From: an archaeon
GTDB taxonomy: Archaea > Hydrothermarchaeota > Hydrothermarchaeia > JALTZZ01
DNA length: 64,000 bases
Direction: 5' to 3'
Assembly (NCBI GenBank): GCA_027051165.1
Contig: JALTZZ010000036.1
Location: 5,050 to 69,049 of the forward strand
Program-made: the position numbers and the translations under genes
Part shown: one piece after another, positions 14,042 through 46,336 of the stretch
How the letters are laid out: every line of letters begins with the position of its first letter
Position numbering within the stretch: the first letter of the stretch is position 1
Notes under the pieces: generated by a model
Seen by the model: the letters and a program-made list of their open reading frames with translations, nothing else
The model's database searches: none
What the model was told of the DNA's origin: nothing

Positions 14042-14043
14042 TT

Positions 14044-14337: not shown

Positions 14338-14348
14338 TATATATTCAC

Positions 14349-17720: not shown

Positions 17721-17722
17721 TT

Positions 17723-27345: not shown

Positions 27346-27436
27346 GCTATTTTGTTCTCTTGGAGCTCCAAGATAAATCTTATGATGCTGCAAAGCTTAG
27401 GAAATGTTATTAAGCCCGCGGGTATATATTAGAAGT

Positions 27437-28333
27437 ATGGTAAGGGTTAGGCTGCTGAGCTGGCACAACGACCCAAGCTTCGTTGCAAGAAGTGCGAGAG
27501 TAAGCGGAGTTGGCAAGGTTAAATGCGAAAAATGCAAAGGAGCTGGAAGGATAAACGGAGAAATTTGCAAAGATTGCAATGGGGAAGGTAAGAGGGAGCC
27601 TACGGATAAGGAAATCGTTGAGATGATAGTTCTAAACGACTACAGCTCCGCACTTGAGCACATAGTTATGAGCTTTGAGATAACGGAGCTGAGCAAGGGA
27701 AACGCATGCGAGTTCCTTGAGCACAGGATAGCGAGCCACACTGGAAGAAGCACGAGGTATCACAAGGAGATAGGCTTTGGTTTCGTAATACCGCCGAAAA
27801 TAAGAAAAATTATGGAAAAGTATGGAATAAAGGACTACACAGAAATTGATAAAGCCTCGGGAGAAGATAAGGAAATTTTAAGGCTGTTCTTCGACGAAAT
27901 GCTTAAGAGCAGAGAGGTTTACGAGAGGCTCGTTGAGATAATCGGCAAAGAAAATGCGAGATACGTTTTGCCCTTCGCAGCTCACACGGCTTATATATGG
28001 ACTATAAACATGAGAAGCCTTATAAACTTCTTGGGTTTGAGGCTATGCGTTAGAGCGAGTCCGGAGATGCAGGAGTTCGCAAAGAAGGTTTACAAGGAAG
28101 TTTACAAGGTATTTCCAGAGATTCTCGAGCACGTGTGGTGCAGAGGGTTTAACCTTGGTGCATGTCCGGAAAACGAGGTTAGGGATTCCCCTCAAGCTAA
28201 GGACTGCCCGTTCAAGAATCCGAATTCAAAGCTCTTCATACCAACGAAAAAGCAGGTGTTTAGAGGAATTGGTGCAAAATTCGATTTTGATGAATTTAGG
28301 AAGTTAAGGGAGAAAATTTTATCAGAGGTTTAA
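27437..28333 (+). CDS. thyX: ThyX-like flavin-dependent thymidylate synthase with zinc-finger insertion
   Basis: SALEH, EHRIASHTGRSTRY (variant of RHRx7SxR), NARYVLP, WTINMRSLINFLGLRLC. ATG 27437. Confidence 0.82.
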   Translation: MVRVRLLSWHNDPSFVARSARVSGVGKVKCEKCKGAGRINGEICKDCNGEGKREPTDKEIVEMIVLNDYSSALEHIVMSFEITELSKGNACEFLEHRIASHTGRSTRYHKEIGFGFVIPPKIRKIMEKYGIKDYTEIDKASGEDKEILRLFFDEMLKSREVYERLVEIIGKENARYVLPFAAHTAYIWTINMRSLINFLGLRLCVRASPEMQEFAKKVYKEVYKVFPEILEHVWCRGFNLGACPENEVRDSPQAKDCPFKNPNSKLFIPTKKQVFRGIGAKFDFDEFRKLREKILSEV

Positions 28334-28787: not shown

Positions 28788-30111
28788 AGTTCTGCTCTTC
28801 TACGAGAAGGGCACTGTTGTCGTTAAAGGAAGCGTTGCGGTGCCACATGCAAGGTTCGATGATAGAATAAACGCTTTTAGAGCCCTTGCCATGTATTATA
28901 GGGATATCGTTGACTTTCTAAAAAGCTCAAGAATAAGCTTTGTTGACAAAGTTCTTAAAACAAAAAAGCCAAGAATAAAGCATCACGGATATATGCTTAG
29001 GGATTATCAAAAAGAATGCGTTGACAGGTGGTTTTTGAGCGGTAAAAGGGGTATAGTTGTTCTCCCCACCGGTGCGGGAAAAACTGTTGTTGCCCTTGAA
29101 ATTATATACAGGCTTGGGTGCTCAACGCTTGTTGTGGTTCCAACCATCGAGCTTCTTGAGCAGTGGTTTAGAGTGCTTAAAAAGGTGAGCGAAGATGTTG
29201 GCAGATATGGCGGCGGTTATAAGGAAATAAAGCCGATCACGGTAATAACATACGACTCCGCCTACTTAAACGTTCAGAATTTTGGGAACAGGTTTGAGCT
29301 CGTGATCTTTGATGAGGTGCACCACCTCCCGGCACCGAGCTATGCAACGATAGCTGAGATGCTTGCAAGTCCGTATAGGCTTGGACTTACCGCAACCCTT
29401 GAGAGGGAAGACGGCTTGCACGTTGAGCTCTATAGGCTTATTGGCGGTAAGGTTTATGAGGCGAAAATAGAGGAGCTTAAAGGAAGGTATCTGTCGGAGT
29501 TTGACATAGAGGTTGTGAGGGTAAGGCTCAGCAGGGAGGAAAAGAAGATATACAACGAGCTCAGGGAAAAATATTTAAAATTTTTAGAGAAGCACGATCT
29601 AAAAATGCCGGAGGATTTTGAAAAACTTGTGATGATGTCTGCGAGAAATAAAGAGGCAAGGGAAGCCTTAATTGCGAGAAATAAGGCAAGAAAAATTGCT
29701 TTCTGTGCGGAGAGGAAGATGGAGAAGCTTAAGGAGATTTTGAAGAAGCATAGAAATGACAGAATTATTATATTTACGGAGCATAACGATATAGTCTATG
29801 AAATATCGAGGAGGTTCCTCATACCCTTTATAACGCATAAAACTAATAAAAATGAAAGAAGGGAGGTTCTTGAAAAATTTAGGAGAGGAATATATAAAGC
29901 GATAGTTACATCCAAGGTTCTCGATGAAGGTATAGACGTCCCCGAGGCTAACATCGGTGTTATAATAAGCGGTAGCGGAAGCAGAAGAGAATTTAGGCAG
30001 AGATTAGGAAGGATATTGAGGAAAAAAGAAGGTAAGAGGGCGATACTATATGAGATAGTTTCAAGCGGAACGAGCGAAACGTTCACGCACAGAAAGAGGC
30101 ACAGAGATTAA
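28780..30111 (+). CDS. xpb: XPB/Rad25-family SF2 helicase
   Basis: PTGAGKT, DEVHH, GLTATLEREDG, LDEGIDVP, QRLGRILR; N-terminal ARFDDRINAFRA damage-recognition-like domain. Confidence 0.88.
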   Translation: MNRVLLFYEKGTVVVKGSVAVPHARFDDRINAFRALAMYYRDIVDFLKSSRISFVDKVLKTKKPRIKHHGYMLRDYQKECVDRWFLSGKRGIVVLPTGAGKTVVALEIIYRLGCSTLVVVPTIELLEQWFRVLKKVSEDVGRYGGGYKEIKPITVITYDSAYLNVQNFGNRFELVIFDEVHHLPAPSYATIAEMLASPYRLGLTATLEREDGLHVELYRLIGGKVYEAKIEELKGRYLSEFDIEVVRVRLSREEKKIYNELREKYLKFLEKHDLKMPEDFEKLVMMSARNKEAREALIARNKARKIAFCAERKMEKLKEILKKHRNDRIIIFTEHNDIVYEISRRFLIPFITHKTNKNERREVLEKFRRGIYKAIVTSKVLDEGIDVPEANIGVIISGSGSRREFRQRLGRILRKKEGKRAILYEIVSSGTSETFTHRKRHRD

Positions 30112-31133
30112 GATTTTGTTTCCCTTACCACTATGTTTTCGAGCCTGTTCATATCGTCTATGGAGCTGTTGAACTCTTCCGCAAGATTTTTCAGTCTTTC
30201 ATACTCTCTTCTCCTTACATCATCAACATAGCTCCAGTCAAAGCTCTTTCTAAACTCCCAGTATACCTTTTCAATCTCTTTCAGCAGTATTTTTCTGTAT
30301 CCATGCAAGCCGGCTATAAAGAAGCTGAAAGATCCAGCTCTCTTTTTCTTTATTATAAAGCTCAATCTTCCTTTATCGTTTAAATCTGCTAATGAATCGT
30401 ATAAAGCTGTTGCAAACATCTCTATTTTTGTCTTGGGATACATTTTTGCAATATTTTTATACGCCTCCAAACTCTCTTTTTCATGAAACTCTCCTATTTC
30501 GTGCCATATATAGCTCTCTATCTCCATGTCCACGATCCTCTCTACATCCTCTATGCTTGTGAGATCTGCATTGTAGTCCTTAAAAGCGAGCTTTAGGGCG
30601 TTTTCGAACATTAAGCTTTTTGCCTCCTCGACCTTGCTCCATATATAGAAGCTTGCAACCTCTCTCCTAACGTAGACCTCTCTGCTCTGAAGCATTGCTG
30701 TAGGGGCTAAGAGATCTCTTGCAAGCTCCCTCCCGCAGATGTAAACATCCAAGCCCTCTATGTTCTTTGTTTCTATTACCTCAGCCAAGAAGAACGACGG
30801 TTTGAGGGAGCCTAAGAAGCCGGCTCCGTATATATAGCCCTTTTCGAGATTCTCATTTATTTCCTTTACATCAAAGGGTTCGTATTCTTTTTTTCCTATT
30901 CTTATTTTTTCAAAGTTTTTGCTCATTAGAGAGTTCCAAAGCTTTTCTTTTTCTTTTATCCATGCAGAAACACTATCAAAATCAGCTTTTTCCCAAGGTT
31001 TAATTCCTTTTTCCCATTTATAAAGTTCAATAGCCCTTATTATAAAAGTGCAGAGAGATAAAGCCCCCCAGTTGTGAGCGTTTGCTATTTCGCAGTTTCT
31101 TTTAACAGCTTCAGCAACGTCTTTTATAGTCAT
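30108..31133 (-). CDS. Sfum_1244-like uncharacterised protein
   Basis: NCEIANA..SLC..YKWEKG..PW, PFDV..IN, YGAG..KPSFFLA, GRELARDL, HEIGE. Family recalled from motif pattern. Confidence 0.62.
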   Translation of the reverse strand: MTIKDVAEAVKRNCEIANAHNWGALSLCTFIIRAIELYKWEKGIKPWEKADFDSVSAWIKEKEKLWNSLMSKNFEKIRIGKKEYEPFDVKEINENLEKGYIYGAGFLGSLKPSFFLAEVIETKNIEGLDVYICGRELARDLLAPTAMLQSREVYVRREVASFYIWSKVEEAKSLMFENALKLAFKDYNADLTSIEDVERIVDMEIESYIWHEIGEFHEKESLEAYKNIAKMYPKTKIEMFATALYDSLADLNDKGRLSFIIKKKRAGSFSFFIAGLHGYRKILLKEIEKVYWEFRKSFDWSYVDDVRRREYERLKNLAEEFNSSIDDMNRLENIVVRETKS

Positions 31134-31460
31134 GATATTATAGTTATGTGACTTACGGTTTAATAAATTTATGCTCAAATTACTTTCATGGCTATAAAGT
31201 TGAGGGTTTAATTCTGTTCTTTAAATCAAAATCACGCTTGATGGTGAGCTCGAAACCTTTATTTAGCCTTGTGCTAACGGAAACCCTGCACTTATGCAGC
31301 TCTACGACACGCTTGACCTACTGTTCTTTATTGCAAAATTATTGCGAGAATGTAGCAGAGCTCTTTCTAAGAGAAAAAATTGTGTAAAGATGAATTAACT
31401 TTTTGTTTATAAAAATTAACAGATAATAATTTAAATAATAATATTAAAATATAGGTTATT

Positions 31461-32411
31461 ATGAAAAAATATTTTGTGGTAATGCTTCTAATTTCGATAA
31501 GTCTTTCATGCCTGAGAGGGGGTGCAGAAAGTTCTGAACAACTGCCGCATCAGAAAGCTTTTTTCAGCATAAATAATAAAGGGAAATATATTTTTGTAGG
31601 AACAGACAGCGGCATTGAAGTTTATAAATTTCAAAACGGAACATTGATTCGTATTTGCTCTAAGGAGTTAAATGCAACCGTGCACGATATAGAAATTTTT
31701 AGTGACTATGCTGTATTGTCCCTTGGTAGCAGCGGCATTGCAATAGGGAATATAAGCATGTTTATTGAAAATCCATATAACTACAGCTTCAAAATAATAA
31801 ATATAAATAACAACATACTTGACGCGGAGATTTATAAAAATTACATACTTGCTGGCGGGTTTATAGGAAATAAGATATATGTTTTTGATTTTGGTGGAAG
31901 AAACATTCTAAACATAACAATACCAGAGTATGGGTATGTGAGGAGGATAAAATCTATAGACGATGAAATATATGTGGCTGATTTTACTGGCGGTGTTTAT
32001 AAGCTGAATATATTTACAGACTACGGATTTTATTTTATGATAACAAAGCATTTTGAAACAAGCGGTGTAGCATATGATGTCGAAAAATTTGATGATAGAA
32101 GAATTATTGTTGCATGTTCATTAAAAGGTTTGGATGTTGTTAACAGCGAAAACGGGTCTCTGGAAAAGAATATTCCGGTAAACGGGTATGCAATACTAAT
32201 AAAGAGATACGGAGATAAGTTCTACATAAGCTTGGCTACTGGAGGACTGCTTGTAATAGATAGGGACATGTTTAAAATCTATAAAACAAAAGGAAATATA
32301 CTTGACTTTGTAGTTTTAGAAAATAAAACAGCTATAATTGCTGATTATTACCACCTTTCACTTCTTGATTTAACAACGGGGGAGGTGAGGAGTTATGAAT
32401 GTAAGGTGTAA
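31461..32411 (+). CDS. Exported (probable lipoprotein) beta-propeller, LVIVD-like repeats
   Basis: Signal peptide with Cys (ISLSCLRG); repeated units IFVGTDSGIEVY, IYVADFTGGVYKL, FYISLATGGLLVID, IIADYYHLSLLD. Confidence 0.65.
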   Translation: MKKYFVVMLLISISLSCLRGGAESSEQLPHQKAFFSINNKGKYIFVGTDSGIEVYKFQNGTLIRICSKELNATVHDIEIFSDYAVLSLGSSGIAIGNISMFIENPYNYSFKIININNNILDAEIYKNYILAGGFIGNKIYVFDFGGRNILNITIPEYGYVRRIKSIDDEIYVADFTGGVYKLNIFTDYGFYFMITKHFETSGVAYDVEKFDDRRIIVACSLKGLDVVNSENGSLEKNIPVNGYAILIKRYGDKFYISLATGGLLVIDRDMFKIYKTKGNILDFVVLENKTAIIADYYHLSLLDLTTGEVRSYECKV

Positions 32412-33828
32412 AATAATAATCATAATAGCATTGGTTGTTTATATCACGATTTTTGGAATATTTTACTATATCGCTAAATCGCAGGAGAAGCAGCTTACAA
32501 ACGTTTTAAAAGAGCAGGCAAAGGGAATTGCACAGTCAATTAAACTTGTAAGATACTGGGCTGCGGAAAATAGGGAACTTATAGTTCCAGTTCCAGCTAA
32601 GCTGACGTATGAACTTGCAGAGCTTTCCAACAAAAAATACAACTACAAAATTGGACTTAAATCGAATAAAATAAGGAATTATAAAAATGCTTTGAGTTCT
32701 GAGTTCGACTACAGAAGCTACTATGCATTTATGAATGGAAGAGATGAATACTACATGTTTTCGGATGGAAAATTTATGTATGCGGTTCCGTTGAAGGTAG
32801 AGGAGCCATGTTTATACTGTCATATAGATCAGGGGTATCGTGCAGGCGATCTACGAGGCATTCTCGTGGTTGAGCTTCCTATTGATGAAATAGAAAGGCT
32901 TAAACAGGAAAATAAGAGAAAAATCTTCCTTTTAGCTCTTTTCTCAGCTCTAATAGTTTCCGCATTTCTATATATACTTCTAAGCAGATTTGTTATTGAC
33001 CCGGTGTATAAGCTGAAAGATGTTGCGGAGGAAGTTATGAGGGGAAATTATGATGTTAGAATTAAAAAGAAAAGCGAAGATGAGTTTGGCATGGTATTTG
33101 AAGCCTTTGATAAAATGGTTAGAGAAATAAAGAAAAGAGAAGATGCTATAGTTAGAGCGGAGAAGCTTGCAACGATAGGGAAGATAACATCGGGAATCTC
33201 CCACCAGATAAACAATCCGCTTGCTAACATAATGCTCTACGCCCAGCTTCACAAAATGGAATGCAAGGATAAAAATACAATAAAGGTTCTTGACATAATT
33301 GAAAAAGAAGCAGAAAGAATAGCGAAAGTTGTTAGAAGCCTTTTGGAATATGCTAAAGAGAGGAAAATCAAAAAGAAAATAGTAAAGCTGAGCGACGTAA
33401 TAAACAGTGCATTGGAAATTTTAAGTCCGCTGATGAAGAATATTACTCTCGTAAAAGATTTGAACGACAAAATATATGTGAATGCGGACTTTATAAAGCT
33501 CAGAGAAGCTATTTTAAACATTGTAATTAACGCAATAGAAGCTGTTTCTAATAAAAAAGATGCAAAAATCGTTATAAAGACCTATGTTGATGCATCAAAC
33601 AGCTCGCAGAGGGCAGTGATAGAAGTATCGGACAACGGAATTGGAATTCCGGAGAGCCACTTATCAAAGATTTTTGATCCTTTATTCTCAACGAAAAAAG
33701 ATGGAACTGGTTTAGGATTGGCTATAACTTACGAAATAATAAAGGATCATGGGGGAAATATTAAGGTTGAAAGCAAGGTTGGTGCGGGAACGAAATTTAT
33801 AATAGAACTTCCGATGGTGGTATTATGA
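32395..33828 (+). CDS. Membrane sensor histidine kinase with extracytoplasmic heme-c (DUF3365-like) sensor, HAMP, HisKA and HATPase_c
   Basis: Two TM helices flank PLKVEEPCLYCH..GYRAGDLRG; HAMP KSEDEFGMVFEAF; H-box ISHQINNPL; N, G1 (DNGIGI), F and G2 (GTGLGL) boxes. Confidence 0.9.
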   Translation: MNVRCKIIIIIALVVYITIFGIFYYIAKSQEKQLTNVLKEQAKGIAQSIKLVRYWAAENRELIVPVPAKLTYELAELSNKKYNYKIGLKSNKIRNYKNALSSEFDYRSYYAFMNGRDEYYMFSDGKFMYAVPLKVEEPCLYCHIDQGYRAGDLRGILVVELPIDEIERLKQENKRKIFLLALFSALIVSAFLYILLSRFVIDPVYKLKDVAEEVMRGNYDVRIKKKSEDEFGMVFEAFDKMVREIKKREDAIVRAEKLATIGKITSGISHQINNPLANIMLYAQLHKMECKDKNTIKVLDIIEKEAERIAKVVRSLLEYAKERKIKKKIVKLSDVINSALEILSPLMKNITLVKDLNDKIYVNADFIKLREAILNIVINAIEAVSNKKDAKIVIKTYVDASNSSQRAVIEVSDNGIGIPESHLSKIFDPLFSTKKDGTGLGLAITYEIIKDHGGNIKVESKVGAGTKFIIELPMVVL

Positions 33829-34451
33829 CCAAGAAGATTTTGGTTGTGGAGGACGATCAGAATCTTAGGAATGGGTTGGAGATGCTGCTTAAAACAAGAG
33901 GTTATGAAGTAAAGACCGCAGAAAATGGTGCAAAGGCTTTGGATATGCTAAGGAAAGAGGATTTCGATTTAATAATTGCAGACTTAATAATGCCAGAGCT
34001 TGACGGCATGGAGCTATTAAGAATTGCAAGGAAGATGTGTCCGCATACAAGTTTCATCGTAATAACGGCTTATGGAACTGTGGAGAGTGCAGTTGAAGCT
34101 ATGAAGCTTGGTGCATGTGACTATATTCTTAAACCGTTTAAAATAGACGAGGTCTATTCGAAGGTTCTAAAAGCACTTGAGGAGGTAAAAATAAGATCCG
34201 AGAGAAGAGTTATTGACGAGTGTTCTTTTAAGTGTCTTTCAAATTCCATAAGAAGGTCTATTATAAGATTTTTATCGAAGAACGAGAAGGCACGCTTCGT
34301 GGATATAATGAACGCGGTTAACATTAAAGATTCAGCGAAGCTGAGTTTTCATTTAAAATTTTTAAAGAAGCACGGTGTTATAGATAAAGATGAAACCAAA
34401 TTTTATTATTTAACATCAAGAGGAAAAATGTTAGCAGAGCTTTTATCATAG
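33825..34451 (+). CDS. Response regulator, receiver + winged-HTH output domain
   Basis: ILVVEDD, DLIIADLIMP (phospho-Asp), ITAYG, KPF; C-terminal LSNSIRRSIIRFL..SAKLSFHLKFLKKHGVI..YYLTSRG. Confidence 0.88.
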   Translation: MTKKILVVEDDQNLRNGLEMLLKTRGYEVKTAENGAKALDMLRKEDFDLIIADLIMPELDGMELLRIARKMCPHTSFIVITAYGTVESAVEAMKLGACDYILKPFKIDEVYSKVLKALEEVKIRSERRVIDECSFKCLSNSIRRSIIRFLSKNEKARFVDIMNAVNIKDSAKLSFHLKFLKKHGVIDKDETKFYYLTSRGKMLAELLS

Positions 34452-34495
34452 TCTCTTTATTTTTATGCTTTTATTCGATATTTAATAAAAAGTTA

Positions 34496-34567
34496 TTTAC
34501 AAACTTGTAAATGCGGATTTCAAAAAAGAATATAAATAACTTTTATTAAAATTTAAAGTGGGGATGT
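34496..34567 (+). promoter_or_regulatory. Palindromic operator + BRE/TATA + RBS upstream of the octaheme nitrite reductase
   Basis: TTTACAA-AC-TTGTAAA (34496-34511), AAAAAAG followed by AATATAAATA, then AGTGGGGATG; paralogous to 37263-37333. Confidence 0.6.
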
Positions 34568-34570
34568 GGT

Positions 34571-36451
34571 ATGAGATACGGTGTGGTTGTTGTTTCTATG
34601 CTCTTGGCTATGGTAGTGATGCTTGGAACAGTAAGTGCAGCAGTTAAGGAACAGTGTAAAACATGTCATAGCGATATGTATGGCTTCTTGCAGGAGGGTA
34701 AGCACAAGACTCATGATTGCAGTCTATGCCATGGAGATTCTACAAAGCAGCTGCAGGATCACATGTCAAATCCAAAGAAAACAAAGCCTTCAATAAAACC
34801 GCTGGAAGAAGGACCTAAATTCTGTGGGCAGTGTCATGAAAAATACTATGAGCAGTACAAAGATATAAACTGGAAGTCTATTGCAAAAATTGAGAAGGCT
34901 AGCCCAGTAGGTAGAGCACCAGCATTTGATCTATTACTCCACAGATACGGATTCGTGTTCGAGCATGCTGAGCCAAGAAGCCATGTATTCATGCTACTCG
35001 ATCATGTGATCGTTGACAGGGGTTACAAAGGAAGATTTAGACTTAAGGACTACAGTCTATTTGTTCCGCCAGAAGGATGGGACGGTGACATAACACCGCT
35101 AATTGTTGATACAAAGAAGAACAATCCTTACAGTGGTAGAGCTGATGTGAAGGGTCTGAAACCATGGGTCGCTGGAGCTGGGAGCACTATATGTCTGCAG
35201 TGTAAGACAACTGATATGGTAGTTGGCTGGGAAACGATAAGCAAAGGTGGAAACAAGACCGGTTATGCAAAGTTCATGAGGTGGGGTAATGCAAAAACCG
35301 CGGAGCTTATAGCAGCGGGTAAGATAAAGAGATCTCTAAACTGCGTCCACTGCCACGATCCACACATGACAAAGATGAGAGTTATAAGAGATGCACTTAT
35401 AGAAGCGGTAAAGAAGAAAGGTCCATTCCCATACGATAAAGAAAAGAATGAAAAAGCTAAGAAGCTTTACAAGATAGTGGCATTCCCAAGCGTAAAGAAC
35501 AACTACAGAGAAATTATTGTATGGGATGCCGATGCTAAGGATCCAAAGCTAAACTGGCTAACGTGTGCGCAGTGCCACGTAGAGTATGAGTGCAACCCAG
35601 TTACAGATGTGAAGACGGATAAGAAAGTAAAGCATGAGGAAGATCCAAGGACAAACATATTCCCATGGGTAAACGTCAACGAAGTCTACGACTACTACCT
35701 CAAGGAAGTCGGTATCTACACATTTAAGCATGGTATCACAAAAGCTAAGCTTATAAAAGCCCAGCATCCAGAGGTTGAGGTATGGTGGGAAAGCAAGCAC
35801 GAAAAGAACAACGTTGACTGTATAGACTGCCACATGCCAGAGATCGATGGCATAGCGTTCCACTCGCCAAGAAGCCCACAAGATATAGGTGTTGATAAAA
35901 CATGTTTGAAGTGCCACAAAGAGTGGGATGTGGAGCAAGCTAACTACGTAATTGAGTCAATACAGGAATACAGTAAGGGTAAGATGAGAGACGCTGAGTT
36001 CCACCTATCAAGACTTGTTGACAGGATAAAGCTTGCCGAGCAGATAGGAGTTGATCCAGCGAAGATAGAAGAAGCGAGAGAATTGCATGCAAGAGCACAT
36101 ATACTATGGGAGTGGTGGACCGCTGAAAACAGCGACGGATTCCACGATCCAGATGAAGCTTGGCTAACGCTTGGCGAGGCTTCAAGACTCGCAGAGAAAG
36201 GCTGGAAGATGCTTGACGAAGAGATAAAGAAAAAGATGGAGGAGCTGCAGGCTAAAATAGAAAAAGCACCAGCTGAGAAGGTTCCAAAGGCTGAGGAAGT
36301 CGTTCCAAAAGTTGAGAAGCCGGCTCCAGAAAAGCCAGCAGAGGTAAAGCCACCAGCAGAAGAGAAGAAAGGCATCTGCGGTCCAACAGCTATTATAGCA
36401 CTTGCAATGCTACCTCTGGCTGGATACCTTGCTCTAAAGAGAAGAAGATAA
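34571..36451 (+). CDS. nrfA: Octaheme cytochrome c nitrite reductase (NrfA/TvNiR-type) with CGP-CTERM anchor
   Basis: Signal peptide; CKTCH, CSLCH, CGQCH, CLQCK (Lys-ligated active-site heme), CVHCH, CAQCH, CIDCH, CLKCH; LIKAQHPEVE; AENSDGFH; Pro/Glu/Lys linker then GICGPTAIIALAMLPLAGYLALKRRR. Confidence 0.9.
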   Translation: MRYGVVVVSMLLAMVVMLGTVSAAVKEQCKTCHSDMYGFLQEGKHKTHDCSLCHGDSTKQLQDHMSNPKKTKPSIKPLEEGPKFCGQCHEKYYEQYKDINWKSIAKIEKASPVGRAPAFDLLLHRYGFVFEHAEPRSHVFMLLDHVIVDRGYKGRFRLKDYSLFVPPEGWDGDITPLIVDTKKNNPYSGRADVKGLKPWVAGAGSTICLQCKTTDMVVGWETISKGGNKTGYAKFMRWGNAKTAELIAAGKIKRSLNCVHCHDPHMTKMRVIRDALIEAVKKKGPFPYDKEKNEKAKKLYKIVAFPSVKNNYREIIVWDADAKDPKLNWLTCAQCHVEYECNPVTDVKTDKKVKHEEDPRTNIFPWVNVNEVYDYYLKEVGIYTFKHGITKAKLIKAQHPEVEVWWESKHEKNNVDCIDCHMPEIDGIAFHSPRSPQDIGVDKTCLKCHKEWDVEQANYVIESIQEYSKGKMRDAEFHLSRLVDRIKLAEQIGVDPAKIEEARELHARAHILWEWWTAENSDGFHDPDEAWLTLGEASRLAEKGWKMLDEEIKKKMEELQAKIEKAPAEKVPKAEEVVPKVEKPAPEKPAEVKPPAEEKKGICGPTAIIALAMLPLAGYLALKRRR

Positions 36452-36482
36452 ATTCTCCAATTTTTTCTTTTTATTATTTTGT

Positions 36483-37226
36483 ATGAGTTTTAAACTTAAA
36501 CTAATAATAATCCTAATATCCTTTTCTATACTGCTGGTAGCATGCAATCTTTTCGAGAAAAATTCTAAGAAGAATTTTTATGAGGGATTCTACGAAGGAT
36601 ACATGCAGGGGTTATCTCAGGGTTATAAAGAGGGTTATGAACTTTCGTGCACAGAAAAAATATTTCCGGAGATCGTGAGAAAAGAAGGTGTAATAGTGAG
36701 AAAATTTGACGTTGGCGACTACATAGTAAATGTTAGAATAAGCACGAGAAAATACTTCTACTACAAATTTAAAGAAGAGGAAAATCTTTCCGAATACATT
36801 ACCCCAAATGAAAGCGAGATAAAGGAGCTTGCCTTAATTCTAAGAAAGCTCTATCCAGATGATGAGGATTTCGCAAGGATTTGCTTAAAAATAGTCCAGC
36901 AGATAAAGTATGAGGATGATATAACGGCTTTTAATGTGAAATTTCCGGTAGAAACGCTTGCCGAGGGAAGCGGAGACTGCGAGGACTTGGCAATACTCCT
37001 TGCCTCGTTGCTTAGAGCTGGTGGACTAAACGCAAGCCTCGTAGTTTTCGATGCCCATGTAGGGGCTGCTGTAAACCTTAAAAATTTAAGAAAAATACCA
37101 AAAGATGGAGCTTTCTTTCTTGAATACAATGGAAAAAAATTTTACTACTGTGAGCCACAGGAAAATTTCGATATCGGTGAAATGCCCAAAAAATATATAA
37201 ACAGCACTGCCAAGCTTTTGTTTTAA
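36483..37226 (+). CDS. Lipoprotein with transglutaminase-like cysteine protease domain
   Basis: LLVACN lipobox-like; GSGDCEDLAILLASLL, AHVGAAV, YYCEP (Cys-His-acid triad order). Confidence 0.68.
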   Translation: MSFKLKLIIILISFSILLVACNLFEKNSKKNFYEGFYEGYMQGLSQGYKEGYELSCTEKIFPEIVRKEGVIVRKFDVGDYIVNVRISTRKYFYYKFKEEENLSEYITPNESEIKELALILRKLYPDDEDFARICLKIVQQIKYEDDITAFNVKFPVETLAEGSGDCEDLAILLASLLRAGGLNASLVVFDAHVGAAVNLKNLRKIPKDGAFFLEYNGKKFYYCEPQENFDIGEMPKKYINSTAKLLF

Positions 37227-37262
37227 AAATTTCGGTAGCAAAGCTTTTTATGTTAACTATTG

Positions 37263-37333
37263 TTTACAAATTGTTAATTTTTATTTTAAAAAAGCATATA
37301 TATTACTTATTTATAAAAAATAGAGTGGGGATG
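37263..37333 (+). promoter_or_regulatory. Second copy of the upstream module, in front of the Reeler-nap operon
   Basis: TTTACAAATTGTTAA, AAAAAAG followed by CATATAT, AGTGGGGATG, with spacing within 1-2 nt of the 34496 copy. Confidence 0.55.
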
Positions 37334-37337
37334 GTGG

Positions 37338-37898
37338 ATGAAGTTCAAAGTATTGGTGTTCTATGTTTTATTAGCCGTGTGTGTTGCGATGGGTAGTGCC
37401 TTCGCTCTGAGCAACGGTGCACCAGACTTAAAGTGTGCAAAGTGTCATAAGAACGTTGTTGGCACCGCTGATATAAAGATTTCTGGACTTCCAGAAAAAT
37501 ACAAGCCGGGCAAAGAGTATACAATTGAAATAGAGATTTTGAGTAGTGTAAAGAGCACGGGCTTTTCTCAGGGAGGTTTTGCCATAGAAGCCAGTGCTGG
37601 AGAGCTGAAAGTTGTTGATGAAAAAAATACACTAAAAAGTGGAAAATACGTTACCCATACTACTGAAGGTGCAGGAAAAAGAAAGTGGAAAGTTGTCTGG
37701 CAAGCTCCAGATAAGCCCGTTGAAGTTACGATAAGCGTTTCAGCCATAGCCTCTAACGGTGATGCATCTCCAGCAAACGATGCTATGGGAATGAAAACAG
37801 TAAAGATAAAGCCAGAGCTTCCATCAAAAACTCTGGGCTATCTTCTGATAATAATAGGAATAGGATTGCTTGTTTTTGCGATATTATATAAGGGGTGA
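37338..37898 (+). CDS. Membrane-anchored monoheme cytochrome c with Reeler-like (choice-of-anchor V-like) domain
   Basis: Signal peptide, CAKCH, GLPEKYKPGKEYTI, GGFAIEASAG, YVTHT, WKVVWQAP, ASNGD, C-terminal TM helix. Confidence 0.72.
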   Translation: MKFKVLVFYVLLAVCVAMGSAFALSNGAPDLKCAKCHKNVVGTADIKISGLPEKYKPGKEYTIEIEILSSVKSTGFSQGGFAIEASAGELKVVDEKNTLKSGKYVTHTTEGAGKRKWKVVWQAPDKPVEVTISVSAIASNGDASPANDAMGMKTVKIKPELPSKTLGYLLIIIGIGLLVFAILYKG

Positions 37899-37903
37899 TA
37901 TAG

Positions 37904-40900
37904 ATGGGTTTGACGAGAAGAGATTTTATTAGAGCAAGTGCCTTAGCTGCAGCTGCTGCGTGCATCGGTGCTGGTGGTTATTTAGCAACCAGAAAAGAGG
38001 AGATTGCAAAAGTGCTACCGATAAGAACGAAGGACTTTCCAGTTGGACAGTGCAGATTCTGTGCGGTTGGATGCACAACCGTAGCAGAGGCTGAGGTTGA
38101 TGAGTCTGGAAAGATAGTCAAGGTCATTGCAATAAAGGGAGACCCTACAAGTCCAGTTAATAGGGGTGTTCTCTGCACGAAAGGATTTTATTTGAACAAA
38201 GCCTTAGCCTATGAAAAAAGACCAAAGAAGCCACTTATAAGAAAGGAATGGATAAATCCAGCAACAGGAAAACCTGATTTGAAAAATTCACCGAGAGTAA
38301 CTAAAGGAGTAACAACAAAAGACCCAGAGGGATTAAAGCCGAGCGAAGTTGACCTTCAGGAGAACTTCGTTGAGGTTGACTGGGAAACAATACTTGAGTT
38401 TATAGCGGATGCAATGGAAATGTGCATAAATGAATACGGAATCTTCTCGATAGGCTACTACGGAAGCGGTCAGCTTGGAACCGAGGAAACCTATGTTATG
38501 AACAAGGCTTTAAAAGGTGGCTTGCCCAACAACCACATAGAAGGTCAGCCAAGGATGTGCATGGCAAGTGCCGTTGTTGCCTATCTTCAAACGTTTGGCA
38601 GAGACGAGCCTTATGGATGCTTTGACGATATAGATGTCCCAGACCCGGATTATGGAGTTCATGCAGATACGTTCTTTATAATGGGAAACAATACCGCAGA
38701 AGCGCATCCAGTTCTTTTCAACAGAATTGCAACTCTAAAACATAAAAATCCAGAAAAAATAAAAATAATACTTGCAGATCCGAGAAAAACGAGAAGCGGA
38801 ACAGTAGCTGATTTATGGCTGCCGTTCATGTCGGGCTCCAATCTAAGCCTGCTGAACGCAATGCTGCACTACATAGTCCTTGAGGCGAACAATATAAAGC
38901 GTGTTGTTGATGTAGATAATGCAAAAGTTGAGCTCAACGACGGCAGAGTAGTTCATCTAAAGGATATAAACTGGAAGTATGTTGATATAAAATTCATAAA
39001 AAGACACTGTAACTTTGGAATAGTAACTCAGGTTCAGAAGGTATGGGTTTTAAACAAGTATGGCGGAACGAGAGGAGAAGTTTGGGATCCAGCATATAAA
39101 TTAGGAACAAAAGCACAGTTCTTCCCGGATCCGAGAAAAGCGGATAAATATAAATCAGAAGAAGAAATAGAAAAGGACTGGTGGAAAGGATTCGCAATGT
39201 ATATAAAGTTCTTAGAAGACTATAAGCCGGAGAAAGTTGCTGATATTGTATTCAGGGGAGAAACTCCGCTGAAGTATGACAGGGCAAAGGGTGAATGGGT
39301 GGAAATAGATCAGGCAGAGGCTATCAGGCTTGCGGCTAAGTGGTTCGCAGAGGGATATACAGTTAGCCTATGGTGCATGGGCGTAAACCAAAATGTTCAG
39401 GGTGTCTGGATAAACAGGGCTATACATGCTCTGCATCTAATAACTGGAAAAGCTGTAAAGCCGGGTAGACATGCGTTTAGCCTAACTGGTCAGCCAAACG
39501 CGTGCGGCGGTATAAGAGCTCCCGGAGCTCTCTGCCATGCACTGCCCTATGGAAGGGTAGTCTTCGATGGTGTAAACAGAAAAGAGGTTGAGGACATCTG
39601 GAAAAAGAACCTTGCAAACTATCTAAGAAAGAAGGGATACAGCGAAGCTGAGATTCAGAAAGAAATTGAAAAGATAAAGATACACGGAAAACCGGGACCG
39701 CATACAATAGAGATGTTCAGAAGATATGGTGCAGGGCAGATAAAGATAATGTTCATTTCTACCGTGAACCCCGGGCAGAGCCTTCCTTATGCGTATGTAT
39801 ATAGAAAGGCAATGGCAGGTGCAGAGAAGAGTAAACCATGGCCTCTTACAATAACTCTCGAAGCATTCCCGAGCACAACTACGCTTGTTAGCGACATTGT
39901 TCTACCAGCTGCAAGCTGGTATGAGAAATCGTTTACATATGGAAATACGGAAAGAAGATATCAGTATATAAGGAAGATCATGGATCCACCATCCAAGGAA
40001 ATGCTTCCGGATTCAGTGATATTTGCAATGATATGGAGAAAAATGGAAGAAAGAGGAATAATACCAAAAGGCTTTATATCAATGTTCTGGCCTGAGGAAT
40101 ATGGAGAAGACTGGATTAAAAAGACGATAGAAAACTGCCACAAGCCTGAGTGGATAGATAAGTTCACAGAGAACCTGTGGAACGAGCTTAGAGAGTTGAG
40201 CAATGAAACACCATACGATCTCAGCGGAATAACAAGAAAGAGACTCAAAGAAAAGGTATCTGGATACAGAATGCCGATGCCAGAAGAATACGACACGGAT
40301 CCTGATGTAAGGGCAAGATATGACAAATATCAGTCAAGAATCACCTATGCATATCCATACGATCCGCATATAGAGAAGCATACAAAAAGGGCTCTTGAAA
40401 ACTTGAAGAAGTGGGCACCGCTATATGCAAGATGGGTTGAGAAAAATATAGAAGAAACTAAGAACGATTTAGAATATAAGAGAAAAGAAAAGCTTCCAGA
40501 TAACTACTGGATAAGCTTCTATGCAGCATGCAAGCCAGTATATAAACGTAAACAGCTTCCAGATGGAAGCAAGGTTCCTATAATAGACTGCAGAGCTATA
40601 ATATGGTCAAATCCGCATTGGGCTACATATTACGATGAGAAGGAGCAGAAATTCAAGATATTTAAGAAAGTGAAGATAATAAAGAAGAAGTTCAATCCCG
40701 AAAAGGCATACAAAGGTCTCTCAGCAGGACCGCTTCCATTTGACAAAATTGAGGAGTTTGAAGCAGATGTTATAGGAGATCCAGAGAGAGACCTAAATGC
40801 AATGTTTACCCTTGTTCTAAGTCCGCCAGAAGTGCCTGGAGTTAAAATTGCCTACAGAAAGCCAGATGGAAGCGAGATCGTAATAATGGATGCGAGAGAC

Positions 40901-41311
40901 TATCCATACGGCGTATGCACGGGCAGAGTAATAGAGCACTGGCACACAGCAACGATGACTAATAGGGTGCCGGAGATAAACAGAGTCCTACCAGAAGCTT
41001 ATGTCGAAATAAACGTGAAACTTGCAGAAAAGCTTGGAATAAAGGATGGGGATCCAGTTATACTCGAATCACCGAGAGCAAAAATAGAGCTTAAAGCTAA
41101 GGTTCTCGATCCAAAGAAGGCATTAGGTGGTCCAAGATACGATTACCTCTTTGTTCCGTGGTTCGATGAGAAGAAGCTTATAGGATTCCTACTAAGGGAT
41201 AACTTCGATCCATTCAGCTTCCAAGCGGACTACAAGATGGCAGCAGTTAAGCTATACAAAGGAACCCTTCAGAGAAAACAGGCTATAGCAAAGCCCTTAA
41301 CGGTAGCTTAA
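37904..41311 (+). CDS. napA: Periplasmic-type nitrate reductase catalytic subunit (NapA-like molybdoenzyme, 1135 aa)
   Basis: Tat signal TRRDF; CRFCAVGC...C [4Fe-4S]; PRMCMASAV (Mo-ligating Cys); NTAEAHP; SLTGQPNACG; CTGRVIEHWHT. Confidence 0.88.
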   Translation: MGLTRRDFIRASALAAAAACIGAGGYLATRKEEIAKVLPIRTKDFPVGQCRFCAVGCTTVAEAEVDESGKIVKVIAIKGDPTSPVNRGVLCTKGFYLNKALAYEKRPKKPLIRKEWINPATGKPDLKNSPRVTKGVTTKDPEGLKPSEVDLQENFVEVDWETILEFIADAMEMCINEYGIFSIGYYGSGQLGTEETYVMNKALKGGLPNNHIEGQPRMCMASAVVAYLQTFGRDEPYGCFDDIDVPDPDYGVHADTFFIMGNNTAEAHPVLFNRIATLKHKNPEKIKIILADPRKTRSGTVADLWLPFMSGSNLSLLNAMLHYIVLEANNIKRVVDVDNAKVELNDGRVVHLKDINWKYVDIKFIKRHCNFGIVTQVQKVWVLNKYGGTRGEVWDPAYKLGTKAQFFPDPRKADKYKSEEEIEKDWWKGFAMYIKFLEDYKPEKVADIVFRGETPLKYDRAKGEWVEIDQAEAIRLAAKWFAEGYTVSLWCMGVNQNVQGVWINRAIHALHLITGKAVKPGRHAFSLTGQPNACGGIRAPGALCHALPYGRVVFDGVNRKEVEDIWKKNLANYLRKKGYSEAEIQKEIEKIKIHGKPGPHTIEMFRRYGAGQIKIMFISTVNPGQSLPYAYVYRKAMAGAEKSKPWPLTITLEAFPSTTTLVSDIVLPAASWYEKSFTYGNTERRYQYIRKIMDPPSKEMLPDSVIFAMIWRKMEERGIIPKGFISMFWPEEYGEDWIKKTIENCHKPEWIDKFTENLWNELRELSNETPYDLSGITRKRLKEKVSGYRMPMPEEYDTDPDVRARYDKYQSRITYAYPYDPHIEKHTKRALENLKKWAPLYARWVEKNIEETKNDLEYKRKEKLPDNYWISFYAACKPVYKRKQLPDGSKVPIIDCRAIIWSNPHWATYYDEKEQKFKIFKKVKIIKKKFNPEKAYKGLSAGPLPFDKIEEFEADVIGDPERDLNAMFTLVLSPPEVPGVKIAYRKPDGSEIVIMDARDYPYGVCTGRVIEHWHTATMTNRVPEINRVLPEAYVEINVKLAEKLGIKDGDPVILESPRAKIELKAKVLDPKKALGGPRYDYLFVPWFDEKKLIGFLLRDNFDPFSFQADYKMAAVKLYKGTLQRKQAIAKPLTVA

Positions 41312-41340
41312 CTCTATTTTTATTTTTTTAAGGTGTAGGA

Positions 41341-42087
41341 ATGAAAAAAGGAATAAAAAGAAGAGATTTTCTAAAATTTTATATTCTTTCTCCGCTTTTA
41401 TTTGGATTTAACACTAAAAAAGATGAAGAGCTTGAAGATGTTGTAAGACCACCTGGTGCAAGCAGAGGATTCTCAAGAAAGTGCGTAAGGTGCTCCGCAT
41501 GTGTCAGCACATGCAGGAATGTCGGCAGATACGCCATAACGCTTGCAGGGCTTTCAAAAGGCATAAGGAACCTTGGAACGCCAGTTGTAGAGAACATGAG
41601 GGAATACCCATGCGATCTCTGCATGGAGTGCACAAAAATTTGTCCAACAGGGGCTTTAAAAGAGATACCAAAGGAAAAGGTGAAGATGGGCGTTGCGGTT
41701 ATAGATATAGACCTGTGCTTGGGGTGGAACTCCGATGTCTGCCTCTCGTGTAGCAAGGTTTGCCCATTTGCAAACGATGTTTTTGAATTTAGAAGCTCAG
41801 AATGGGGAAATCAGCCATATATAAAGCCAGATAAATGTGTAGGCTGCGGTTTGTGTGTTAAAGCGTGTATTGTGAGGAAAACAGCCGTAGTTGTATATCC
41901 GCCCAAAAAATACAGAGAAATAGAGAGGGAGTATCTGATGTATCTTGACTATATTGAAAGCCTTCCCAATCTAAACAGATACAAGGTTGTATACGAGGAC
42001 AACCTGCCGAGAATACTTGAAATAGGTATAGAAAGGGAAAGGGAGGAAAGGGTTCTGAGAGAGCTAAAAAAGAGGAAGGTGAAGTAA
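41341..42087 (+). CDS. napG: NapG/MauM ferredoxin-type protein
   Basis: RRDF, VRPPGA, CVRCSACVSTC, CDLCMECTKICPTGAL, GVAVIDIDLC, CVGCGLC. Confidence 0.9.
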   Translation: MKKGIKRRDFLKFYILSPLLFGFNTKKDEELEDVVRPPGASRGFSRKCVRCSACVSTCRNVGRYAITLAGLSKGIRNLGTPVVENMREYPCDLCMECTKICPTGALKEIPKEKVKMGVAVIDIDLCLGWNSDVCLSCSKVCPFANDVFEFRSSEWGNQPYIKPDKCVGCGLCVKACIVRKTAVVVYPPKKYREIEREYLMYLDYIESLPNLNRYKVVYEDNLPRILEIGIEREREERVLRELKKRKVK

Positions 42088-42830
42088 TGATCAGCAGAGC
42101 AAGAAGGCTTGTGCTTGCCTTAATATTAGCTCTATTTATCCTTCAGTTCTTTGGTATAGAAATTTTGAAGGGAAACCTTGTAAGCTCGATATTTTTAAAT
42201 AAAATCTATCTTTTTGATGTTTTTTCTGGTATAGAAACAATTTTATCTTCTAAACGATTGGAGATTAATATAATCCTCGGAATACTCACGGTAACCTTCA
42301 TATACGTTATATTCGGAAGAGCGTTCTGTGGATGGATATGTCCGCTTGATGCGGTTTTTTCATATATAAAAGGAAGGGAGAAAAATAGAAAAACCTTAAA
42401 TCCAGCCTATCCAGCGGTATTTTTTCTCACAGCTTCGCTACTGCTCTCACAACCGATATTTGCATCATATATCTCACCAGTATCGAACTTCTTTAGAATA
42501 ATATACTCCCCATTTCTTGGAAGCATTTCTCTGCTCATTTTCTCTGGAGCAATGATCCTTCCGATAATTCTTATGGAAATTCTTGAAAAAAGATTTTGGT
42601 GCAAAAATATTTGTCCAATAGGATTTATCTATGGAAAATTTAATAAAATAAGCTTAATAGGAATAAAAATAGATAAAAATGCATGCATAGACTGCAAAGC
42701 CTGCGTGCAAGCATGCCCTATGGATGTTGAGATAAAAAAATACAGCACCAGAATAAGATCATCGAACTGCATTCTCTGCGGGATATGTGTCGAAAAATGC
42801 GAGAAAAATGCACTAAAATTTGGGGGGTGA
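42087..42830 (+). CDS. napH: NapH membrane polyferredoxin (quinol dehydrogenase)
   Basis: GRAFCGWICP, RFWCKNICPIG, CIDCKACVQACP, CILCGICVEKC; several TM helices. Confidence 0.9.
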   Translation: MISRARRLVLALILALFILQFFGIEILKGNLVSSIFLNKIYLFDVFSGIETILSSKRLEINIILGILTVTFIYVIFGRAFCGWICPLDAVFSYIKGREKNRKTLNPAYPAVFFLTASLLLSQPIFASYISPVSNFFRIIYSPFLGSISLLIFSGAMILPIILMEILEKRFWCKNICPIGFIYGKFNKISLIGIKIDKNACIDCKACVQACPMDVEIKKYSTRIRSSNCILCGICVEKCEKNALKFGG

Positions 42831-42833
42831 ATA

Positions 42834-43055
42834 ATGGTTGTGGTGAGCGGATATTTTGTCGTTAGACCTGAGTGCAAAGTTGAAGATGCAATAAGCAAAG
42901 CAAAGGAGATCGGTGTAGAGATTCACTACGTAAAGGAAAACAAAGTCCTAATTTTGATAGAGGACGATCCAAAAACGGTTAAAAGAAAACTAAATAGATT
43001 AAAGAAAATTGAAGAGATCGAAAACGTCTTTATAGCATACTACTCTCTTGAATAA
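42834..43055 (+). CDS. napD: NapD-like Tat proofreading chaperone
   Basis: 73 aa, ferredoxin-like pattern (SGYFVVRPE, GVEIH, KVLILIE, VFIAY); last gene of the nap operon. Confidence 0.75.
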   Translation: MVVVSGYFVVRPECKVEDAISKAKEIGVEIHYVKENKVLILIEDDPKTVKRKLNRLKKIEEIENVFIAYYSLE

Positions 43056-45175: not shown

Positions 45176-45182
45176 GCGGTGT

Positions 45183-45768: not shown

Positions 45769-45772
45769 GAGT

Positions 45773-46287: not shown

Positions 46288-46336
46288 GGGTTAGAATTTT
46301 CTACTGCAAGGAGGACGAGGGGTTAACTGGGTTAGA

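Follow-up and report, generated by a model that had tools for sequence, protein, structure and literature searches.

The archaeal enzymology of nitrate ammonification is almost undocumented, and Pyrolobus is said to form ammonium from nitrate with enzymes that are unknown. A stretch of 64 kb from the assembly of an uncultured hot-vent archaeon of the Hydrothermarchaeota (GCA_027051165.1, contig JALTZZ010000036.1, positions 5,050 to 69,049; hereafter the window) carries at 30108–43055 a block of genes for a NapA-type nitrate reductase and an octahaem nitrite reductase (ONR), and it raises the question of whether archaea wire the route from nitrate to ammonium in a way of their own. A sequence-only reading had described the block as a self-contained respiration island with novel components and dedicated regulation. 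We find that the locus is an archaeal member of a known nitrate-ammonifying module; its wiring is not of a new kind. The best reading, to which we give a probability of roughly 0.7, is an extracytoplasmic chain from nitrate via nitrite to ammonium under the control of a haem-containing kinase that would sense nitric oxide (NO) or redox state.

All of the genes that had been listed are present at 30108–43055, and both their coordinates and their family assignments, which lie far beyond chance, bear out the list. From a propeller lipoprotein through NapD, the genes are co-oriented on the plus strand and closely spaced, and the block is composed of two modules. Module 1, the sensor-ONR module, comprises an LVIVD-like propeller lipoprotein, a haem-c Cache kinase, a response regulator with a receiver (REC) and a winged helix-turn-helix (wHTH) domain, an ONR of the TvNiR type and a transglutaminase-like lipoprotein. 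Module 2, the cytochrome-nap module, comprises a Reeler monohaem cytochrome c, a NapA of 1135 residues, NapG, NapH and NapD. The combination of Nap with a CxxCK octahaem reductase points, as had been proposed, to the conversion of nitrate to nitrite and then to ammonium.

By its motifs and alignments, the octahaem protein (34571–36451, plus strand; 626 residues) is a TvNiR-type octahaem nitrite reductase, predicted to convert nitrite to ammonium. Its seven CxxCH motifs and one CxxCK motif (CKTCH, CSLCH, CGQCH, CLQCK, CVHCH, CAQCH, CIDCH, CLKCH) follow the order of three CXXCH, one CXXCK and four CXXCH by which the eight haem sites of ONR are defined (Saghai 2023). The protein matches Cytochrom_C552 (E=4e-48). 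Among solved structures, it matches TvNiR of Thioalkalivibrio nitratireducens (PDB 2ot4) at E=1e-105 and another ONR (PDB 8rv0) at E=8e-97, and pentahaem NrfA structures match its C-terminal half only (about 1e-21). On alignment to 2ot4, R131 (in VDR), E302, Y303 and C305 (in VEYEC) and Q360 and H361 (in QHPE) are all retained, and with them the catalytic Arg/Tyr/His, the Tyr-x-Cys pair and the Glu/Gln of the Ca site. The two enzymes thus share eight haems in the same order, the Lys-ligated catalytic haem, the triad, the Tyr-x-Cys pair and the Ca site; they differ in overall sequence (about 40% identity) and in a C-terminal linker of roughly 70 residues with a membrane anchor on the archaeal protein, which also begins with a signal peptide. 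The tail, CGP[TS]A followed by a hydrophobic helix and RR(K/R) after a Pro/Glu/Lys-rich linker, occurs in five of five archaeal ONRs and in none of 24 bacterial ones. The same five archaeal proteins are 68–88% identical and form a clade apart from all sampled bacterial ONRs, to which they are about 40% identical. The sorting-signal anchor that had been read into this tail holds as a C-terminal anchor of CGP type; its membership in CGP-CTERM was considered and not assigned, as the tail scores 17.5 bits against the TIGR04288 cut-off of 21 and bears a resemblance only.

The nitrate reductase (37904–41311, plus strand) has a twin-arginine translocation (Tat) signal (RRDFIRAS) and matches NapA models at E=2e-128, and among solved structures it comes closest to the NapA of Desulfovibrio desulfuricans, which is monomeric and independent of NapB (E=2.5e-125). 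Its motifs are intact: C50, C53, C57 and C91 are invariant, PRMCMASAV holds the Mo-coordinating cysteine, and SLTGQPNACGGIR, of the GQPNACGGIR type, retains the conserved Arg. At about 400 residues more than canonical NapA (about 720–830 residues), the protein falls outside the equivalog and length ranges of that family. Four insertions (about 115–156, 328–429, 699–754 and 809–983) hold many residues that are invariant across archaeal and bacterial homologues, and they are therefore functional and not junk. Identity is 55% to the nitrate-induced NapA of Desulfurivibrio dismutans, 53–61% across bacterial orthologues and 41–42% to Pyrodictiaceae and Ignicoccus.

Those extra residues and the score below the equivalog cut-off would also suit a molybdoenzyme acting on selenate, chlorate or arsenate, with ONR serving as a reductase of sulfite or another sulfur compound; cytochrome c nitrite reductases are reported to reduce sulfite as well, and the phylum has been described as sulfate-reducing (Carr 2019). 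We consider this assignment of substrates improbable, given that the nitrite-reductase active site is fully conserved in ONR, that the NapA-specific motifs are kept and the best matches are all NapA, that the NapA orthologue is nitrate-induced in Desulfurivibrio, and that co-location of nitrate and nitrite reductases is a recurrent pattern. Reduction of nitrate and nitrite remains our reading of the two enzymes.

After napA come three further Nap-like genes. NapG (41341–42087, plus strand) is a Tat-exported ferredoxin (RRDFLKF) with four [4Fe-4S] motifs and a match to NF007012 (E=2e-30, below cut-off), and it is syntenic in bacteria and Crenarchaeota. NapH (42087–42830, plus strand), the membrane quinol-dehydrogenase subunit, has two CX3CP motifs (CGWICP and CKNICP) and two [4Fe-4S] motifs; NapH/MauN is its best family (TIGR02163, E=1e-40, below cut-off). 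The pair therefore shows the motifs expected of NapGH. A NapD-like, putative Tat chaperone of 73 residues (42834–43055, plus strand) matches Pfam NapD weakly (E=0.002, 18.5 bits against a cut-off of 28), and eight of eight orthologues match the same model (best 1.2e-7). Their place after napH is conserved, and a search with the family profile has E. coli NapD structures as its top matches (E=0.006).

The absence of NapB, NapC and NrfH from the block, on which the claim of novelty had leaned, was confirmed across the 64-kb window, to which all our statements on these partners and on maturation genes refer. A scan of all six frames found CxxCH in only three open reading frames (ORFs), those of the kinase, ONR and the monohaem cytochrome, and Pfam scans of 30 flanking ORFs, besides the block genes, found no NapB, NapC, NrfH or cytochrome-maturation genes. 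The window encodes neither NrfA with NrfH or NrfBCD nor a dihaem NapB or tetrahaem NapC, as canonical systems would have; it encodes the NapAGHD-plus-ONR set without napB, napC, nrfH or nrfBCD. This absence is typical of the known module and is therefore not a sign of new wiring. NapGH is a recognised substitute for NapC and acts as quinol dehydrogenase in Epsilonproteobacteria. That the block is self-contained is likewise not evident: genes for cytochrome c maturation, Mo cofactor, Tat export or quinones are missing from it.

The known module is best documented in Desulfurivibrio. D. alkaliphilus expresses napAGHD and ONR during nitrate ammonification, with a nitrate-induced nap operon (Thorup 2017, PMC5516251), and D. 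dismutans has NapAGHD together with a CxxCK octahaem enzyme homologous to TaNiR of Trichlorobacter ammonificans (PMC12142623); ONR is very abundant (rank 78) in nitrate-grown D. dismutans. Our genome scan placed the Nap of Desulfurivibrio and Kryptonium in the same long-NapA subtype as that of the window. Like the window, D. dismutans has a Reeler cytochrome, long NapA (55% identical, 1111 residues), NapG and NapH in series (locus L211; labels of this kind denote homologous loci compared with the window), and Desulfurivibrio has no NapB, NapC or NrfH, a CxxCK ONR (described as membrane-anchored in D. alkaliphilus) and nitrate induction. Unlike the window, Desulfurivibrio is bacterial, its ONR lies elsewhere in the genome, its cytochrome is soluble and lacks a C-terminal transmembrane helix, and it has no propeller or transglutaminase-like partners. 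In T. ammonificans (Sorokin 2023), as far as the papers that cite the work describe it, Nap is partnered with ONR and pentahaem NrfA is lacking, as in the window; the same citing papers report that the ammonifying role of TaNiR was proven in vivo and that both T. ammonificans and T. lovleyi have Nap and ONR side by side as partners. The Geobacterales loci that we compared (L145 and L115) differ from the window in a NapA of about 770–810 residues and an ONR downstream of napAGH, and no Reeler cytochrome was seen in them.

Closer still are cassettes in bacterial metagenome-assembled genomes (MAGs). Bacterial cassettes with the order ONR, cytochrome, NapA, NapG, NapH, NapD are common and often accompanied by a regulator and an sCache_haem kinase: the order from ONR through NapD recurs in dozens of Nitrospirota and Thermodesulfobacteriota genomes, and of the 43 loci whose upstream sequence is long enough, 32 have the ONR gene directly 5' of the cytochrome gene. 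Cassettes of Nitrospirota (Thermodesulfovibrionales), Dissulfurispiraceae and Thermodesulfobacteriota share with the window six structural genes in identical order and an adjoining sCache_haem kinase and regulator. They differ from it in an OmpR-type regulator, in an unanchored ONR and cytochrome and in having no transglutaminase gene between the two, and their ONRs, 40–45% identical to that of the window, form a separate clade. Our literature search found no paper describing these Nitrospirota and Thermodesulfobacteriota MAG cassettes. With NapAGHD and ONR described in Desulfurivibrio and the same order found in many bacterial MAGs, the wiring cannot be called novel, and the architecture is essentially already described for bacteria. 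As prior description had been named as a ground for refutation, the finding is partly refuted on this point. What remains specific to the lineage of the window is the fusion of the two modules under two near-identical promoters that bear a palindrome, the C-terminal anchors on ONR and the cytochrome, and the archaeal DNA-binding domain on the regulator.

The least familiar component of module 2 is the Reeler-fold (choice-of-anchor V) monohaem cytochrome c (37338–37898, plus strand; 186 residues), which has one CAKCH motif and a C-terminal transmembrane helix. It scores 94.9 bits against NF041895 (choice-of-anchor V; cut-off 42) and 22.2 bits against Pfam Reeler (cut-off 21). A word-based search with the single sequence returned only three proteins, and a profile query was needed to reach the wider family of 143 clusters at 90% identity, whose members are annotated only as 'hypothetical' or 'choice-of-anchor V'. 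Among 66 sequences, C33, C36, H37 and H107 are invariant, and an AlphaFold2 model built on these 66 predicts a beta-sandwich with an all-beta core (predicted local distance difference test score, pLDDT, 91). Domain score, fold and CxxCH motif thus agree with a Reeler/choice-of-anchor V monohaem cytochrome, with haem attachment as a prediction. In each of 42 bacterial loci, the cytochrome directly precedes long NapA, and the view of it as an archaeal novelty has to be given up in favour of a conserved partner of long NapA that bacteria have as well. The C-terminal helix is present in the aligned archaeal cytochromes (window, L085 and L084) and missing from the aligned bacterial ones.

Members of this family appear in earlier papers. 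Kletzin 2015 (PMC4429474) used the F-spondin reeler domain to model hypothetical monohaem cytochromes from Ignicoccus, Pyrolobus and Hyperthermus and gave no function; the Pyrolobus and Hyperthermus homologues have a C-terminal transmembrane helix. The published Desulfurivibrio operon (napAGHD) omits the cytochrome, and the donor of NapA is called unknown (PMC5516251; PMC12142623); the D. dismutans paper (PMC12142623) names NapAGHD only. In the published proteome table of that organism, RS11650, the cytochrome orthologue, stands directly upstream of the 1111-residue NapA (RS11645). RS11650, NapG and NapH were detected in formate-plus-nitrate cells only, and NapA was 64-fold higher on nitrate (log2 S8/(F+NO3-) = -6.0). 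Our literature search found no paper that ties such a Reeler cytochrome to Nap. Synteny, the invariant haem ligands and the nitrate-only detection in D. dismutans lead us to propose, at roughly even odds, that the cytochrome is the electron donor of NapA.

A small cytochrome directly 5' of napA is in itself an established arrangement. The monomeric NapA systems (D. desulfuricans napCMADGH; Thermosulfurimonas and Dissulfuribacter napMADGH) resemble the window in having such a gene, a NapA without NapB, and NapG, NapH and NapD. The window differs from them in a monohaem beta-sandwich cytochrome in place of the tetrahaem, c3-like NapM, in the four NapA insertions and in having no NapC. In a second type of bacterial cassette (L007, at 11701–12093, L057 and L064), ONR is followed by a tetrahaem NapM-like protein of 130–160 residues, a NapA of normal length (about 772 residues), a short NapG and NapH. 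As the NapM-like protein fills the slot 5' of NapA, the Reeler cytochrome and NapM are positional analogues, and the linkage of ONR with Nap has arisen with two different small cytochromes. Canonical dissimilatory nitrate reduction to ammonium in E. coli and Wolinella shares the chemistry and the extracytoplasmic site, and the NapGH quinol dehydrogenase is as in Epsilonproteobacteria; the window departs from it in having ONR for pentahaem NrfA, no NrfH, NrfBCD, NapB or NapC, and a haem-Cache two-component system in place of NarXL, NarQP or FNR.

Module 2 also extends into Crenarchaeota. It is present in Nitrospirota, Thermodesulfobacteriota, Desulfurivibrio and Ca. Kryptonium, and in a looser arrangement in Pyrodictiaceae and Ignicoccus. 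Pyrodictiaceae and Ignicoccus share long NapA (41–42% identical), NapG and NapH with the window, and Pyrodictiaceae and Hyperthermus share a Reeler-type cytochrome, of which the aligned L084 copy has a C-terminal transmembrane helix. They differ in that no ONR or other nitrite reductase was recognised in them and that the cytochrome usually lies nearby and not directly 5' of NapA. Growth on nitrate is reported for Pyrodictium delaneyi, which has NapADFGH but in which no nitrite reductase was recognised (PMC5556600). In Ignicoccus pacificus DSM 13166 (L086, 9980–16369), NapA has 1240 residues, and NapG (334 residues) and NapH (521 residues, with an extra transmembrane region) are enlarged. To our knowledge, Ignicoccus has not been described as a nitrate reducer.

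In neighbour-joining trees, which carry no bootstrap support, the long NapAs form one clade inside Nap; Pyrodictiaceae, Ignicoccus and Hyperthermus branch first, and the lineage of the window is sister to the bacterial group and not nested in it. Because Crenarchaeota branch first and the lineage of the window is sister to all bacteria, the class may have arisen in archaea and then moved to bacteria; trees of this kind leave the direction of transfer between archaea and bacteria open. It is conceivable, with a little less than an even chance, that the Reeler cytochrome is the dedicated redox subunit of a distinct long-NapA class, where it would replace NapB or NapM and also feed ONR where ONR adjoins. 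The same reading, held just as tentatively, would make this class common to Pyrodictiaceae, Ignicoccus, the Hydrothermarchaeota-like lineage, Nitrospirota, Desulfobulbales and Kryptonia. If it is true, electrons would follow a minimal chain that leads from quinol via NapGH to the cytochrome, and from there to NapA as well as ONR.

The regulatory genes of module 1 precede ONR. The histidine kinase (32395–33828, plus strand) has by Pfam the order transmembrane helix, sCache_haem (Tll0287-like, CLYCH), transmembrane helix, HAMP, HisKA and HATPase; residues 32–162 match PF11845 (Tll0287-like) at 45.5 bits against a cut-off of 24.1, with CLYCH inside the match and HAMP, HisKA and HATPase_c after it. 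An extracytoplasmic Cache domain with a CXXCH insertion, coupled to signalling domains, is the form that characterises sCache_haem sensor kinases. A 2026 preprint redefined the DUF3365/Tll0287 family as sCache_haem, in which haem c is attached covalently; one representative of the signalling type behaves like a sensor of NO, and among RefSeq archaea the preprint lists sCache_haem in one genome only. The same type of sensor adjoins the bacterial ONR-nap cassettes. The kinase had been called heme-sensing, of which the haem content is upheld and the sensing of haem is not. The response regulator (33825–34451, plus strand) combines REC with a winged helix (DUF7347/ArsR-like) according to Pfam; the regulators of the bacterial cassettes have REC in common with it, but their output domain is OmpR-type Trans_reg_C. 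In the other Hydrothermarchaeota loci L003 (9214–9762), L004 (9305) and L005, a thioredoxin/glutaredoxin-fold gene lies between regulator and ONR; the window and L165 lack it.

The proposal of dedicated two-component regulation in the block was strengthened by an operator-like palindrome in front of both structural operons. A perfect palindrome, TTTACAAACTTGTAAA, lies at 34496–34511, about 20 nt upstream of a BRE/TATA-like element (BRE, B recognition element), AAAAAAGAATATAAATA, as a candidate operator of the ONR promoter, and a second copy, TTTACAAATTGTTAA, at 37263–37277, upstream of another BRE/TATA-like box, is a candidate operator of the nap promoter. Both promoters read TTTACAA-N2-3-TGTWAA, then a BRE/TATA-like AAAAAAG(A/C)ATATA(A/T)AT and then the same Shine-Dalgarno-like AGTGGGGATG. 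Searched for as TTTACAA-N1-2-TTGTWAA, the palindrome is confined to these two sites in 64 kb, where 0.01 matches are expected. Local alignment of the ONR and cytochrome promoters over 82 nt scores 38, compared with 12 +/- 1.9 (maximum 21) for shuffles and 17 for the best of 164 other AT-rich segments. The palindrome is kept at both promoters in L165 (NapA 94% identical), with an identical nap copy, and is absent upstream of the unlinked nap (L167/L085) and ONR loci of a sister lineage; it is therefore claimed for the lineage of the window only. Upstream of the kinase operon no copy was found, and with three mismatches allowed the number of matches is at chance level. An inverted match between the propeller-gene and nap promoters (I3) is AT-rich. 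Taken together, the promoter sequences suggest that fusion of the modules was accompanied by nap coming under the operator of the ONR gene.

Two lipoproteins complete module 1. The propeller lipoprotein (31461–32411, plus strand; 316 residues, lipobox-like N-terminus) is the first gene of the sensor operon and has no family match of its own beyond a weak CPSF_A; its positional orthologues in L003, L004 and L005 are LVIVD repeat proteins (E down to 2e-50). On these matches, we regard the window protein as a degenerate copy of an LVIVD-type beta-propeller. Among the loci compared, the propeller lipoprotein is confined to archaeal ONR loci. The second lipoprotein (36483–37226, plus strand) has a transglutaminase core of cysteine-protease-like type (Transglut_core, 29.7 bits against a cut-off of 23, E=8e-7) and a weak LapG match; its gene lies 3' of ONR in the window, L165, L002 and L004, is not found in L003 or L005, and never occurs in bacterial loci. 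On the other side of the propeller gene, the divergent Sfum_1244/DUF6866 gene (30108–31178, minus strand; 316 bits against a cut-off of 150) lies outside the conserved module, and L003, L004 and L005 hold another conserved gene (cluster c26) in its place.

With a NapA that is 56–61% identical to those of Nitrospirota and Thermodesulfobacteriota and a sensor family that is almost absent from archaea, bacterial DNA misjoined to an archaeal contig might be suspected. That the contig is archaeal, as had been stated, was borne out by TiaS, an XPB helicase with a damage-recognition domain and an F420 ligase on it, and the nearest named relatives of the locus are Hydrothermarchaeota and Ca. Pyrohabitans. 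An NCBI genome whose NapA is 94% identical (GCA_054046405.1) and two Logan read sets contain the full fused island with identical flanks, so that the block was assembled independently with the same archaeal flanks (TraB, M50 and dCTP deaminase). The GC content of the block matches that of the flanks. The wHTH regulator is specific to archaea, as are the anchors and the clade to which ONR belongs, and the archaeal NapA branches separately, as a sister to the bacterial NapA and not from within it. We thus regard an assembly chimera as very improbable and have rejected contamination, given the same block and flanks in independent assemblies.

Synteny of the accessory genes, which had been named as a point on which the finding could fail, was recovered elsewhere, and on this point the finding stands. 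Module 1 is conserved in Hydrothermarchaeota, Ca. Pyrohabitans JdFR-17 and one 'Methanobacteriota' MAG, where glyA and not nap follows it. In the sister lineage, whose NapA is 79% identical, MoeA/FmdE and RadA/MoaC enclose the nap module, no ONR is nearby, and the ONR-transglutaminase pair is on another contig. On L167 of this lineage (8127–17401), MoeA, MoaC and FmdE flank the nap module, and no NapD was called after NapH. As ONR modules can stand without nap, ONR may also serve on its own.

The same observation makes it conceivable that these enzymes act mainly in detoxification or as an electron sink and not in energy-conserving respiration; ONR would then clear nitrite, NO or hydroxylamine that poisons a sulfate- or CO-based metabolism, and Nap would dispose of reductant. 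Such a role would suit the sensor-ONR module without adjacent nap in related Hydrothermarchaeota, a probable NO sensor in control, and the nanomolar nitrate of the crustal fluids where relatives live (Carr 2019), and the literature leaves the role of ONR, respiration or detoxification, unsettled. Set against this are the fusion of Nap and ONR under matching promoters, the growth by nitrate ammonification of bacteria with the orthologous system, and the rank of ONR in nitrate-grown D. dismutans. We judge this main alternative, a mostly detoxifying or electron-disposing role, unlikely, and the ammonifying chain remains the preferred reading.

In the proposed ammonifying chain, NapH in the membrane and Tat-exported NapG would take electrons from the quinol pool. 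The electrons would pass, most likely via the membrane-tethered Reeler cytochrome, to the long NapA, which is predicted to be Tat-exported with a molybdenum bis(molybdopterin guanine dinucleotide) cofactor and a [4Fe-4S] cluster, and which would reduce nitrate to nitrite. NapD would act as chaperone for NapA export. ONR, presumably tethered by its long linker and CGP-type anchor, would reduce nitrite to ammonium at the Lys-ligated haem. In the extracytoplasmic Cache domain of the kinase, covalently bound haem c may serve to sense redox state or a nitrogen oxide, with NO as the most plausible signal; the kinase would then phosphorylate the REC-wHTH regulator, which probably binds the palindrome just upstream of the BRE/TATA. 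One promoter would drive ONR and the transglutaminase-like gene, and the other would drive the cytochrome and NapAGHD.

Several points weigh against this chain. For the archaeal members, the evidence is genomic. Other Hydrothermarchaeota keep the ONR module with no nap genes adjacent, and the window holds no cytochrome c maturation genes (including the CxxCK haem lyase), Mo-cofactor genes or quinone pathway. NapA scores 430 bits against a cut-off of 904 (NF010055), NapG and NapH are both below their NCBIfam equivalog cut-offs, and ONR, scored against NrfA models, falls below theirs. The case for the cytochrome is made by its synteny, its invariant haem ligands and a single proteomic detection at low abundance. 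A Foldseek search of its model against the PDB returned only Ig-like, cohesin and YcnI beta-sandwiches (TM-scores of 0.3–0.4) and no cytochrome, generic neighbours that make the fold uninformative on its partner. The electron donor of ONR can be given only as candidates, namely the same cytochrome or NapG, and the binding of the regulator to the palindrome is something we infer.

On the favoured reading, one archaeal contig carries a complete, co-regulated nitrate-to-ammonium gene set. The locus also links what had been separate reports for Hydrothermarchaeota: NapADGH was described by Carr 2019 and onr appears in two Hydrothermarchaeota assemblies in Supplementary Table 1 of Saghai 2023, and Kato 2019 detected no NirS/K-type nitrite reductase and left nrfA unmentioned. 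A bacterial-type periplasmic pathway would here have been refitted to a cell that lacks an outer membrane, with C-terminal tethers and an archaeal DNA-binding domain on the regulator. Beyond archaea, the novel-type NapA of Desulfurivibrio, whose electron donor has been called unknown, has an obvious candidate donor in the conserved and uncharacterised cytochrome, and this can be tested in cultured strains.

A few other features of the window are of note. At 12809–22658 (minus strand) lies a type III-B CRISPR-Cas system (Cmr2/Cas10, Cmr3 and several RAMP proteins) with a Csm6 HEPN ribonuclease; its GC content is about 0.31, compared with 0.36–0.43 elsewhere, and Tandem Repeats Finder found no CRISPR array in the window. 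The ThyX gene (27404–28333) encodes an N-terminal CxxC...CxxC zinc-finger-like segment that is unusual for ThyX, with a weak DnaJ_CXXCXGXG match (E=7e-4). Downstream of the block, an archaeal non-coding RNA of the HgcC family (45171–45300, minus strand; 97 bits) lies beside a C-terminal fragment of a tyrosine integrase (45268–45768) and small ORFs. In L165, the dCTP deaminase gene comes immediately after that of the M50 peptidase, and the window segment of about 1.4 kb at 45171–46600 therefore has the look of an insertion or of what is left of an integrated element. Finally, the ORF at 48889–49416 contains tandem repeats of 33/66 nt and 21 nt at 49045–49335 and encodes a Lys/Glu-rich, coiled-coil-like protein.

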